Source: Octopus vulgaris
Lineage: Eukaryota
Reading direction: 5' to 3'
Assembly (NCBI GenBank): GCA_951406725.2
Contig: OX597824.1
Location: forward strand, 29,946,001-30,010,000
DNA length: 64,000 bases
The translations under genes were made by a program, and so were the position numbers. The notes under the pieces were generated by a model. That model saw only the letters and a program-made list of their open reading frames with translations. It did no database searches and was not told the origin of the DNA. Position 1 is the first letter of the stretch; each line of letters starts with the position of its first letter. Below are positions 7,264 to 63,604 of the stretch, in pieces.

Positions 7264-7480
7264 ACGGGAAGCTTTATGAAAATAAACAAAAGACGAAGGC
7301 AGGTGGAATACAAACAAACAATTGTATTAGTATGGCGCTCAGGAATATAAATAAAACAAGTCTTTTACGTTTCGAGCCTACGCTCTTCAACAGAAAGATA
7401 CACAGAAAAGAAACACGGAGAGAAACAAGGAGAGAAAAAAAATGCGTGCAGAAGCTAGCGAATCAACATGGCGATCTGAT
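7264..7480 (-). mobile_element. ~200-nt hammerhead-bearing element between (TA)n tracts
   Basis: Reverse complement aligns by eye with 16059-16246 and 50566-50717. Confidence 0.7.
7361..7398 (-). ncRNA. Minimal type I hammerhead motif, variant core
   Basis: TCTTT-CTGTTGAA-GAGC-GTAG-GCTC-GAAA-CG-TA-AAAGA; A6 replaced by U. Confidence 0.55.
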
Positions 7481-8129
7481 TATATATATATATATATACG
7501 TCTATCTCTATTTCTAAGTTAAGAGTAAAAGTAAAGCAAATCTGCAAAAGGCAAGAGATCTTTATACACAGATGCACAGAATAACAGCAAACAAATAACG
7601 ACACCAGAGTGCGCAACAAACATCAGCGATCTAACAGTCGCCTGTACTCTTGATTAGAGACACCATTTAGTCTTACACCTGCCAGGTTCGTTCATATTAG
7701 CCTGAGTTGCTGGATAATTTTTCGTTCCCTTAAGAAAATTTTTTAAATATTCTTATGAATATATGAAACTTTTCAAACATTGGAATTTCAATAGAAATCT
7801 CTATAGAAATTTATTGTTTCAAGAAAACATTAAATTTAAATTACTTTTAATTTTTGCGACTACAAATAACAACAACTCGGGCTGTAAGTTCTGAGCCTGA
7901 GTCAGGCGCGTATGATCGATGTCGTGAGAACGTCTACTACGAACGATATTTTTTTACATAAGACGACTGCCACACGCTGAACGAAAATAAATGGAGCCCG
8001 AGTTATTAGCTACAATTACATACTTGAAGCCAGTGTTGGCAGAAATTAAATCAGCTTGCAAATACATGTTCACTTCACTAAATTTATACTCGGGCTAAGC
8101 CCGAACAGCCCGAGTGCCAGACTCGCCAA

Positions 8130-8365
8130 GGTTACCGTGGTCTTTTCCGTAGGCTTTTCTTTCCACGGCTAAACCTTATCTGTTTACCCTTTACATCATG
8201 ACATTTCTATGATACACGATAACCTATTGATCGTTTTTTTTACGATCCCTTTTGATCGAAAACCTACCCCCCCCCCCTTTTTTCTCCCCCAAAAGAAAAG
8301 CTCTACTTTGTAATTTGTCCCCTCTGTTTTCAGCCCTGTGTGGCTAAGTGGCTAATAAAGAAACA
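8130..8365 (+). mobile_element. Probable LINE 3' end sharing its tail with SINE family B
   Basis: Ends TTTGTCCCCTCTGTTTTCAGCCCTGTGTGGCT..AATAAAGAAA, like the family B tail; upstream sequence is not SINE. Confidence 0.5.
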
Positions 8366-8699
8366 TATATATATATACATATATATATATATATAAATTT
8401 TGTTTCAGGTAGTCTGGTAGATGGGCTAGGTATTTTTTTTGTTTTGTTTTTTTTCACAGCTTTGCTGAGCAAGACTGAATTCTTACCTCCATTTGTAAAG
8501 AGGTCGTGTGCCTTCAGCCACCAGGTCTGATGATTCATCTATATTGCTAAGAGCAACAATAGACGCGAACCCATTGGTAATTTTCTGACTGACCATAACC
8601 AACGACTACATAGGCAGTCAGCTATGAAACAAAGCTTGATTACTTCGAGCTCAAGTGAGAACATATATGGCTTTTGAGTTCGGAGACTCTCTTAAGAAC

Positions 8700-8850
8700 T
8701 TTCCACAAATATTGCTAACGTATCTCAGTTCTGAATCTGTTATATTGTTGAGCTTTTGCGCATGTTTTGATGTCTCTAAACCTCCTGAAGATTTACCATG
8801 ACACCGAGGAGCGTTTTCTTGCATAAAATGACGATATTGGAGGTTAATGT
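8700..8850 (-). pseudogene. Possible decayed Tc1/mariner transposase fragment
   Basis: Minus strand reads LQYRHFMQENAPRCHGK, resembling the FMQDNAPCH motif; nothing else recognisable. Confidence 0.25.
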
Positions 8851-9164
8851 TGTTCTCATATGATCGTAAAGGATAAAGCTATATGACCAGTAACAATGTT
8901 CGTTCTTTTGTGTATATATCTCAGTCTCTCAGTATATGTGCGTATGTTTCACATAAGATTTTATAAAGAAAAGGACAGGAGTTTATACACGATATGCATA
9001 TTCTTATATTCATATGGAAGTGTCCATGTGTATGTGTGTGTGTGAGTGTATATGCATGTCTGTATACGTCTATATTTATATGCAAATACACCTACTTACG
9101 TCACGTACGTATGTGTATTTGTACTTGTGTGTATGTGTACTTGTTTTTTGTCTTCATTTCACGT

Positions 9165-9385
9165 TACTCCAGTTTCCTCAGAAATGAGTTGACACGTCAC
9201 TGGTGCCAAGCTGTTTTGGCGTTTGCCTTTCTCTTGGATAACATCGGTAGCGTGGAGAAGGTAGGCTGGTATGCATGGGCGACTGCTGGTCTTCTATAAA
9301 CAACCTTGCCCGGACTTGTGCCTCGGAAGGGAACTTTCTAGGTGCAATCTCATGGTCATTCATGACCGAAGGGGGTCTTTATCCT
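9165..9385 (+). mobile_element. SINE family C, 5'-truncated
   Basis: Matches the 3' part of 38470-38820. Confidence 0.8.
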
Positions 9386-60550: not shown

Positions 60551-60930
60551 AAGACCTCCTTCGGTCACGAATGACCATGGGATTGCACCTAGAAAGTTCC
60601 CTTCTGAAGTACAAGTCCGGGCATGGTTGCTCACGGAAGACCAGCAGTTGCCCATTAATACCAGCGTCTCCTTTCCATACCATTATATGTATATAGGGTG
60701 ACCCCCTCCCCCTCAACTCAGGTATGAATGTCCTTGGGATTGCTCCTAGAAAGTTTGCCTCTGAGGCCCAAGTCCGAACAAGGTTGTTTGCGAAAAACCA
60801 GCAGTCGCGCATGCATACCAGTCTTCCCTCTCCATGCCACCAATGTTTGTTGTCCGAATGAAAGGCAAAGGTCGATAGAGCTTGGCACCAGTGACGTCAC
60901 AACTCATTTCTACAGCTGAGTGAACTGGAG
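60551..60930 (-). mobile_element. SINE family C, partial, with duplicated tail
   Basis: Reverse complement of the 38470-type tail occurs twice. Confidence 0.8.
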
Positions 60931-62699
60931 CAGGTGGTTTTGTATGTTGAGTTGTTGTGCCTAGCTGTATCCGTAAATTTGTGTATGCATACACACACAC
61001 ACACTCACACACACACACACACACACACACACACATTATATATATGCGTGCACGTGTATGTGTGTGTGCGCGTGCGAGGACAAATACAGGTGTATTGAAT
61101 ATCATACAGCATAAATTGTTGATTTATCAGAATTATCTCCACCTCTGCGGAATATATCATAATTACCTACTGGCAGTTAGGACCAGTTCATGTGAGAAGA
61201 GGATATCTCAAGAATCAAAAATACTACAAAAATGACATGTCACTTAAAGAAAAGGCCAGATTTATTGTCTGGAAATAAAACGACACTCGTTTCTGCCTCA
61301 ATAAGCGTTATCAACACGACTATCGTCCTAACTTCAGCAGCCAAAGGAATTAGATATATGCATGAATTGAACACATATATTTCGGGGAAGATATTTCTTT
61401 GTTGTACATTTAACCCTTTAACATTCAGATTACTCTGTCAAATGTAGAATAGGTGTGAAAGTCTGGATCTGGTCGATAAAACTGATTGAATATTTGGGTC
61501 GGTTATGACCCGTTTAAACGCTAACAGCTTATATACTTACTGAGCTCCACCATCACCACCACCCTATACATACATGTAACACACACACACATACACATAT
61601 TGACCAGGAAGCTATTTTTGTTAAGGTCTCTTAGCTTTTAATTAGTAATTTTTCGATAATTAAACAATCTTGCGTGATGGTGGAGGGTGGCTCTCTTCAA
61701 TATCTTTGGAACATTAAAAATCTTAATAACTCTCATTCGAAAACAGCATTTTTCTAACTTCCTTTCTCTCTTGCTCCCACCCTCACTCTCCCTCTCCCCT
61801 TTCTCCCCCCTTTCTCTCTCTCTTTCTCTGCAATTCTATGGATTTGGGTTTTTTCAAAGAATTTTTCATTGAATTTGTCATTAATAAAACTAAGAATGTT
61901 TTCATGAAAACGGATTCTAGAAAAACAAGCAAAAACGCAAACGCCTATATATATAACCAAATATGAGCATGTAATACATATACACACACACACATGTATA
62001 TATGTACGTATGTATGTATATATATAAAGAGAGAGAGATTAGTATAATACGTAAGCCATACATAACGCACACGGACTTATGCATACGTACATAATACGTA
62101 CACACATCCATATATATTATATATCATATCTTCAACATATTTCCAAAGGGATCAACATACATTTATTTAATAGTTGCATATATTTTTTCACTCCTAATTT
62201 ATTCAACAATAATAACAATAATAATAATAATAATAATAATAATAATAATAATAATAATAATAATAATAATAGTAATAGTAATAGTAATAATAATAATAAT
62301 AATAATAATAATAATAATAATAATAACAGTAATAGTAATAAAACTTCATTTGAAAAACTCTTTAAATTGAAAATCAATTCATAGCTATTTATTTCAATTT
62401 TTTTCCGACTCAGTTCCGACTCAGGTCAACAATCGGAGACCCTTAATAAGAATTAGATAAATTAGAAACTTATTTAATAATATCTACGACTATGCGTGTG
62501 GGGGTGTTGCAGGGTTTTGATGTTTCTTTAGGGGCCTTTTTATTTTTTTTTTTTTGGTGGGAGATTTTTCTGTTTGCATTCAAGCAATTTCCGTTTGCAA
62601 AATTGCTTTGGAATATAATTTTTGGCCTTCTTCTTTCAACACTTAAACTGCGATATTGGATAGCATATTACAAACGAAGATAAAGTATATATATATGGA

Positions 62700-63085
62700 G
62701 GCAGTGTAGTCGAAAAACTCGCTTATAACTACGTGGTTTCATGTTCAGTCACACTGCGCGGCACATTGGACGTGTGTCATCTACTAAAACCCCCGGCAAA
62801 CTAATGCACCGTGAGAAAATTTGATAGTCGGAAACTGTGCGGAAACCCGTCGTATATGTGCGTGTGTGTGTTGCTTTGTGTTTGTGTTTATCTTTCCACC
62901 ATTTGACAACCTGTGTTGGTTTGTTTACGCATCTGTAACATAGAGATTCAGAAAAGGAAACCAATGGAATAAGTGCCAAACTGAAAAACTAAGTACTGGA
63001 ATCGATCTTGACGACTAGATCACTTCCAAGCGGTTCCCCGGGATGGCCGCAGACAAGTGGCAAACAAGTGAGAGATAAAGGATAA
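62700..63085 (+). mobile_element. SINE family A, diverged
   Basis: Family A blocks. Confidence 0.75.
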
Positions 63086-63256
63086 CAGATATCTATTTAT
63101 CGATATAGATAGATAGATAGCTAAATGCAGATGTAGATATATTTATACATATATATGTATACATATGTATAAATTGCATTCAAAATGTGACCGCGTGTGT
63201 ACCGTTGGCAATTTTTTTTCCTCTGTCTTCCCTTCTCTGGATCTTTCCTTCTCCTA

Positions 63257-63293
63257 TGTTTCCGACGAAGAGCTCCGCTCGAAACGTTAGACA
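63257..63293 (+). ncRNA. Minimal hammerhead motif within a ~210-nt element (63185-63393)
   Basis: TGTTT-CCGACGAA-GAGC-TCC-GCTC-GAAA-CG-TT-AGACA. Confidence 0.6.
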
Positions 63294-63604
63294 CTCCTTC
63301 TTCCCTTCCTTCCTGAGCGTCCAATAATACTATATTTGTTCCACGTCCTCGCGTTGTTGTGTTTTCTCTTTGTGTTTTCATGTTTGGATTAACTTTATAT
63401 GTATATATATATATATATATATATATATATATATATAGTATGTATGTATGTATGAGTGTATGTGTATGGTGTCATATACATATACGTACAAATACACACA
63501 CACACACAAACACATACATGCATACTACATACATACACATACATATATACATATGTACATACATATATATACACACACATACACACATACATTTATATAT
63601 ATTC

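Follow-up and report, generated by a model that had tools for sequence, protein, structure and literature searches.

Hammerhead-bearing repeats in the window

The window analyzed here is a 64,000-nucleotide stretch of the Octopus vulgaris genome (assembly GCA_951406725.2, contig OX597824.1, positions 29,946,001 to 30,010,000 of the forward strand), and our subject is five short repeats within it, each built around a minimal hammerhead ribozyme, that are probably terminal pieces of Penelope-like elements (PLEs). Copy 1 (7264–7480, minus strand) consists of a leader, the hammerhead, and a 102-nt 3' part, and it stands out as a plateau of contig depth; together with copy 2 (16059–16246, plus strand), which lies within the TA tract of a short interspersed element (SINE), it makes up an abundant group that we call subfamily A. 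The other three, all on the plus strand and named by their first position, are 50566 (50566–50717), which is shortened at its 5' end, 63185 (63185–63396), which belongs to a related family, and the distant copy 18110 (18110–18297). Leaders in the window copies are 71–92 nt long, and no sixth member of the group was found within the window.

All five hammerheads are of type I: stem I is short, stem II has 4 bp, and the GAA strand is followed by a palindromic ACGT, or in 50566 by ATGT, that replaces stem III. In copy 1 (hammerhead at 7361–7398, minus strand), stem I is TCTTT/AAAGA, the core is followed by an extra A, stem II is GAGC/GCTC, and GAA-ACGT completes the motif, with cleavage predicted after 7366. 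The corresponding hammerheads are at 16121–16156 in copy 2 (predicted cut after 16152), 18178–18213 in 18110 (predicted cut after 18209), 50585–50619 in 50566, and 63257–63293 in 63185. The preliminary description of this DNA had reported a GAGC-loop-GCTC-GAAA motif with variable loops and a downstream CTGAGCG, and both were located in four of the copies: the former at 7370–7385 (minus strand), 16133–16148, 50596–50611, and 63270–63284, with loops GTAG, GTAG, GCAA, and TCC, respectively, and the latter at 7336–7342 (minus strand), 16169, 50632, and 63313. It had also given stem III as ACGT only, which is correct for four copies, 50566 having ATGT. The G10.1-C11.1 pair occurs in all five, and the extra A preceding position 10.1 in four, being ambiguous in 50566.

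The window was searched with a minimal-hammerhead descriptor allowing one or two core mismatches, using 40 block shuffles as the control. At one mismatch there were three matches in the window and none in any of the 40 shuffles; at two mismatches there were five, comprising four of the copies and an unrelated match at 26619, against a shuffle mean of 0.15. Copy 18110 escaped at both thresholds because its stem II is irregular. In an alignment of the five copies, 41 of 45 cells (91%) were paired, compared with 20–53% in slid controls, and three of the nine pairs, in stems I and II, had changed on both sides. The covariation that had been proposed for checking is therefore present and backs stems I and II, although with only five sequences, from which the structure was itself derived, it is supportive rather than conclusive. 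No hammerhead was found among the 150 Rfam matches listed of 299 in the window, nor in Rfam scans focused on 18100–18530 and 7264–7480.

Relatedness of the copies

Copies 1 and 2 are 82% identical over 157 nt and begin within 7 nt of one another in their alignment, whereas 50566 is 72–75% identical to them. Similarity of each pair was tested against 1000 dinucleotide shuffles, separately for the parts upstream and downstream of the ribozyme. Downstream, all six pairs among copies 1, 2, 50566, and 63185 beat the shuffles (0–11 of 1000 as high), but 18110 compared with the four others gave 431, 16, 137, and 238 of 1000 shuffles as high; outside the ribozyme it has a weak likeness to copy 2 alone (one of four pairs) and otherwise little in common with the rest. 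Upstream, only copies 1 and 2 align (0 of 1000 shuffles as high), and the remaining nine pairs have their pyrimidine composition in common and no alignment beyond it. The copies are thus several related families, not one: subfamily A, the remoter 50566 and 63185, and 18110. The single family with a shared pyrimidine-rich leader that had been described consequently survives in part: four copies do align outside the motif, on its downstream side, 18110 was rightly set apart as more distant, and the leader is common to the copies in composition and to copies 1 and 2 alone in alignment.

Two short motifs, the CTGAGCG already mentioned and an ACTAAY-like sequence, lie ~17–50 nt past the cut (e.g., 7336–7342 on the minus strand and 16169–16185) and are kept across families that have otherwise diverged. 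They are candidate protein-recognition signals for a PLE enzyme. A branch-point role for the ACTAAY-like motif was considered and dropped, as no AG consistently follows at the end.

Insertion sites

Distances between the 3' ends of the five copies and a (TA)6+ tract are 1, 0, 6, 24, and 990 nt; three ends are therefore within 6 nt of (TA)n, among them that of 63185 at 6 nt, and both copies 1 and 2 have TA on either side. Only 1.7% of non-tract positions in the window are within 10 nt of a (TA)6+ tract, so that the adjacency has a P of about 5e-5, a value computed from five copies, the window having been selected for this very feature. The earlier statement that copies lie in or beside (TA)n accordingly applies to three of the five 3' ends and not to 50566, which has no TA neighbor and instead adjoins the head of a SINE at 50169–50562 (minus strand).

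The nesting of copy 2 was borne out: it lies in the TA tract inside a tRNA-headed SINE (15730–16535, minus strand, head end approximate), which it splits into halves at 15730–15785+ and 16335–16505; positions 7–63 of the reference SINE match 15730–15785, and positions 197–384 match 16335–16505. SINE heads in the window contact TA in two of eight cases, and the window SINE, when translated, shares 88% identity with a protein of Argonauta hians (one match among eight candidates).

A second hammerhead family, B, unrelated to that of the five copies, is present as an inverted pair at 18381–18712 (minus strand) and 20521–20788 (plus strand; predicted cut after 20761). The two differ by one mismatch in 264 nt and are very young. 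They have a full 4-bp stem III and a weak stem II lacking G10.1-C11.1, enclose ~1.8 kb of simple-repeat-rich non-coding DNA, and both end at (TA)n, the left copy with an extra 68-nt tail that ends 91 nt past the cut. Family B looks like a non-autonomous PLE insertion, and an inverted pair with a tail is a PLE hallmark in the same window; for the five copies themselves, no partial tandem or inverted arrangement with a tail was seen in the window. Just past the TA tract at the end of family B, there is a 121-nt direct repeat (20839–20959 and 21183–21305, 89% identity).

Abundance

Contigs or reads of four sequencing runs (X1, X10, X13, and X22, of 24 listed) were aligned to positions 7250–7800 of the window. 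In X1, 28,606 contigs aligned; their summed depth was 4.5–13.3 million over 7269–7458 but did not exceed 25 thousand in the flank, where one contig matching the flanking sequence exactly had a depth of 62.8; summed depth is not copy number, because overlapping contigs may count one base up to about 31 times. We infer that the copies number in the thousands to tens of thousands. Depth is greatest at the ribozyme, and 347 and 307 contigs diverge on its two sides: the hammerhead is shared by further families. Over the leader, depth is flat (4.5–5.1 million over 7402–7458), compared with 6.9–11.3 million over the 3' part; the 5' boundary lies in a skipped repeat (22 loose-end rows were dropped in X13), where extensions beyond it would not be visible. 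Another variant ended directly in TA in 32 contigs of X1.

None of the listed runs containing the repeat is recorded as RNA. Runs X10 (3,408 contigs) and X13 (213) are only guessed to be RNA and show neither strand nor level, and we draw no inference on expression from them. In X22, a raw DNA run that shares its species label with some repeat-rich runs, just six poor, A-rich reads of 12.9 million aligned, and the run was left out of account. The flank of copy 1 at 7516–7743 is itself an older repeat, with a summed depth of up to 25 thousand at about 80% identity.

Probable association with Penelope-like elements

We consider that the copies are 3' terminal modules, i.e., pseudo-long terminal repeat (pLTR) or 3' untranslated region (UTR) ends, of endonuclease-bearing PLEs, probably Neptune-type, in several related families whose members are solo and without an open reading frame (ORF); we give this a probability of about 0.8. 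The preliminary description was right in seeing ~200-nt solo units dependent on an autonomous partner, but did not name PLE pLTR ends as their source.

A metagenome scan with the GAAGAGC-loop-GCTCGAAACGT motif returned at least 120 loci. Among the 120 listed, 64 have a C[CT]GAnGA core, 63 of these in AT-rich contigs, and ten (eight distinct), which come from other animals, have the C-terminus of a PLE endonuclease upstream on the same strand, a figure that includes both query loci, since the queries were two ORFs found in those loci. The distance from the end of the endonuclease ORF to the motif is 90–141 nt in nine of these loci and 681 nt in the tenth, L068; the window leaders are thus the size of such a PLE 3' UTR. 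Locus L068 encodes a reverse transcriptase (PF00078), homologues of its C-terminal part carry PF01541 (GIY-YIG) or PF26215, and it has the CX2CxxC linker that is a feature of Neptune and Nematis (PMC8557442), but it shares only the ribozyme with the window copies. Pfam gave no match in the ORF translations P0001 or P0002. In L012, pieces of a PLE endonuclease on both strands lie immediately upstream of the hammerhead, an inverted, 5'-truncated arrangement.

The distance from the predicted cut to the 3' end is also nearly constant, at 102, 94, 102, 108, and 88 nt in the five copies (the 3' ends being those of the preliminary description together with the alignment of the copies) and 91 nt in family B. 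In a PLE of Anolis, the hammerhead cuts at +26 and reverse transcription starts at +111–118, i.e., 85–92 nt farther on (PMC11167929), which is close to the 88–108 nt of the window copies. By analogy, a nick in AT-rich or (TA)n DNA would be made by the GIY-YIG endonuclease of a PLE; reverse transcription would begin at a fixed internal site ~90–110 nt beyond the hammerhead cut site, and an early stop would leave a ~200-nt product for integration. Cleavage by the hammerhead would require either the double form, in a tandem transcript, or the aid of a protein (PMC4209133; PMC11167929). The enzyme, its clade, the mode of priming, and the type of template, full-length or short and non-autonomous, are all inferred.

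Several points weigh against assigning the copies to PLE ends. No PLE ORF remnant was detected in the window (best tblastn E-value 0.18 with 57 proteins, best profile E-value 1.9), and the link to PLEs in this genome is therefore indirect. The pattern that includes CTGAGCG matched no metagenome contig, so the ORF-linked relatives share the ribozyme only, and 110 of the 120 loci listed have no ORF match, although 40 of these have only about 300 nt of flank. The 4-bp stem II is shorter than the 7–8 bp of the minimal hammerhead ribozymes (min-HHRs) of Schistosoma, and the smallness and selection of the sample behind the TA test have been mentioned. Finally, the flat leader depth and the nearly identical starts of copies 1 and 2 hint at a fixed 5' end, which they fit better than random truncation. 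The general hammerhead pattern had no matches in viral contigs.

Catalytic core and expected activity

The canonical CUGAnGA core is found only in 18110 (CTGATGA), a point that the preliminary description had missed. Copy 1 has CTGTTGA, with U at position 6, copy 2 CTGTAAA (U6 and G8A), 50566 the one-base-short CTGAGAA, and 63185 CCGACGA (U4C). Among the 74 distinct AT-rich metagenome matches listed, none has U at position 6, 70 having A, whereas a CCG start of the U4C type occurs in 23. CCGACGA is the commonest core among the metagenome matches listed, with 25 of 120 (L002, L009, L011, L018, L021, and others), and is a natural, family-wide variant in contigs of apparent animal hosts. U6 recurs in a 3-contig loose-end consensus from X13, and place 7390 is absent from the 40 best-supported of 111 difference rows; U6 is therefore probably a trait of subfamily A.

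In predicted folding, U6 pairs the core strand into a closed rod of −10.8 kcal/mol, versus −8.4 for the open form. Activity falls when position 6 is altered: A6C leaves less than 0.1 per minute (PMC3088659) and causes a strong loss in Mg but not in Mn (PMC7151607); no activity data for U6 were found in the literature. We think it likely that the U6 hammerheads of copies 1 and 2 are silent or nearly so. More generally, the solo copies are probably catalytically silent because they have no partner in cis and four of five deviate in the core; by nearest-neighbor energies alone, two monomers are favored over the double-hammerhead form by 1.3–10.3 kcal/mol in each of the four copies computed. The dimer requirement put forward in the preliminary description thus stands, but not as the sole barrier to activity.

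Alternative explanations

Subfamily A might be a stand-alone, non-autonomous element, ~190–215 nt long and fixed at both ends, that exploits the PLE enzyme as a SINE-like parasite and that lost catalysis through U6 before it amplified and kept the fold, if at all, as a shape for protein recognition. This would refine the PLE interpretation rather than oppose it, and we hold it only tentatively. It would account for the flat leader depth and sharp span in X1, for the common 5' start of copies 1 and 2 despite 18% divergence, and for U6 being in both copies and in the X13 consensus, with 7390 outside the 40 best-supported differences; the closed rod also speaks for it, and hammerhead mutants still permit PLE insertion in vitro (PMC11167929), the hammerheads being dispensable there, while their function in PLEs has been called unclear (PMC8557442). 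However, the contigs were recruited by their likeness to the window and only the 40 best of 111 difference rows bear on the point, which limits any estimate of how many copies have the canonical A6; extensions at the 5' end could have escaped detection in the skipped repeat, a leader depth of about half that of the 3' part is compatible with truncation, and no promoter was identified. A more specific proposal, in which subfamily A is a parasite of fixed length (~200 nt) on Neptune-type PLEs and reached tens of thousands of TA tracts once U6 had closed its core into a rod, is doubtful. If true, it would demonstrate in nature and on a genome scale either that PLEs can move without hammerhead catalysis although the fold persists, or that there is a new, active natural core variant.

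The copies could also be dispersed monomers of non-LTR (long terminal repeat) retrozymes, in which tandem arrays would be transcribed, cut by double hammerheads, and circularized, and unit circles reverse transcribed into TA tracts. Their size (190–217 nt) and G+C content (38–44%) fit, Xenopus has dispersed monomers beside a few arrays that were traced to PLE pLTRs (preprint 10.64898/2026.07.22.740005), and a fixed 5' end would follow from a circular template. There is, however, no tandem copy anywhere in the window and no head-to-tail junction among the joints listed for the four runs, the 5' edge being partly skipped; neither is the unit compactly folded (z of +1.17 as a linear molecule and of +0.77, +1.19, and −0.56 as a circle), and the retrozymes described carry canonical rather than minimal hammerheads (PMC7229834), which together make this origin improbable. 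A SINE transcribed by RNA polymerase III (Pol III) and carrying a hammerhead, like the SINE-like repeats of schistosomes, moved by an RTE or R4 long interspersed element (LINE), seems very improbable. A B-box-like 9-mer with one mismatch does overlap stem II, and the window has ORF remnants that we take to be RTE-like and R4-like, but in copy 1 just 3 nt separate that B box from the sole A-box-like match, which overlaps the ribozyme, and five runs of at least four T would stop Pol III, and there is no tRNA-like head, poly(A), or LINE-like tail; we rejected it on the box spacing and the internal T runs. Chance likeness of pyrimidine-rich, low-complexity stretches would suit the failure to beat shuffles, seen for the leaders in most pairs and for 18110 everywhere but in the motif, as well as the lack of a hammerhead match in Rfam. 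Given the descriptor and shuffle tests, the covariation, the 82% identity of two copies, and the 28,606 contigs in X1, its probability is negligible, and it was rejected on the descriptor and shuffle results and the covariation.

Other features

Two ORF remnants are at 57426–59151, broken by a (TACA)n tract, and at 45690–46373; we take them to be an R4/Dong-type and an RTE-type LINE, respectively. A protein search with an RTE-like ORF returned three unnamed matches. Imperfect repeats of ~75–90 nt at 37266–38324 surround an ORF remnant (37591–37956, minus strand) that presumably is Helitron-like. Inverted-repeat pairs or palindromes at 25379–25692 (96%), 26250–26490 (77%), and 43275–44002 (74%) are possibly miniature inverted-repeat transposable elements.

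Comparison with known systems

Solo min-HHRs in metazoan PLE pLTRs, dispersed, dimer-requiring, and attributed to truncated PLEs, were described by Cervera and de la Pena in 2014 (PMC4209133). The window copies agree with them in being type I with a short stem I, an extra nucleotide preceding stem II, and G10.1-C11.1, in having a palindromic stem III that needs a dimer, and in occurring mostly as single dispersed copies of many heterogeneous families per genome; they differ in a stem II of 4 bp rather than 7–8 and in the apparent U6 of the abundant subfamily, a variant absent from the accessible text of that paper. According to Craig et al. (2021, PMC8557442), Neptune- and Nematis-type PLEs are biased toward TA and show both tails and inverted copies. 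Insertion into TA tracts without a visible target-site duplication and a hammerhead near the 3' end are found here too, as are inverted copies with tails in family B and the CX2CxxC linker in L068, but the window copies have no linked ORF in the genome, and the clade is thus an assignment by resemblance. A TA insertion bias is common to Naiads too, and the accessible part of a report on killifish Neptune (PMC12602865) yielded no statement on targets.

Poseidon PAc of Anolis carolinensis (Frangieh et al. 2024, PMC11167929) likewise has ~90 nt from cut to end, AT-rich targets, and two alternative ends, the last seen here in family B. Its ORF begins inside the hammerhead, whereas here that ATG is present in 18110 alone and opens a frame of just 14 codons, and the 3' part is U-rich in the window copies but an AC-rich stem-loop in PAc. 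Animal non-LTR retrozymes (PMC7229834; preprint 10.64898/2026.07.22.740005) resemble the copies in being short, non-coding, and low in G+C, in carrying a type I hammerhead, in descending from PLE pLTRs, and in occurring as dispersed monomers; here, no tandem units or head-to-tail joints were seen, the ribozyme is minimal, and the fold is not compact.

In O. vulgaris, PLEs account for 6.83% of the genome, or 191 Mb, and fall into 190 families, of which 31 were recently active (PMC13282606); the giant squid is reported to have 235 hammerhead matches (PMC6962438). The families of the five copies may already be in the O. vulgaris repeat library of the former study. No description of an octopus PLE hammerhead or of a U6 core was found in the literature, most subscription papers and Repbase being outside the search. 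Solo minimal hammerheads, the dimer requirement, and TA targeting are already published (PMC4209133; PMC8557442); what the window adds to this known pattern are octopod examples of probable PLE pLTR ends with minimal hammerheads and a probable U6 core in an abundant subfamily. Short repeats that are highly abundant next to TA tracts may be PLE ends that Rfam overlooks, and the presence in one genome of a successful subfamily with an altered core and of families with canonical cores would allow copy number, age, and cleavage to be compared directly between them.

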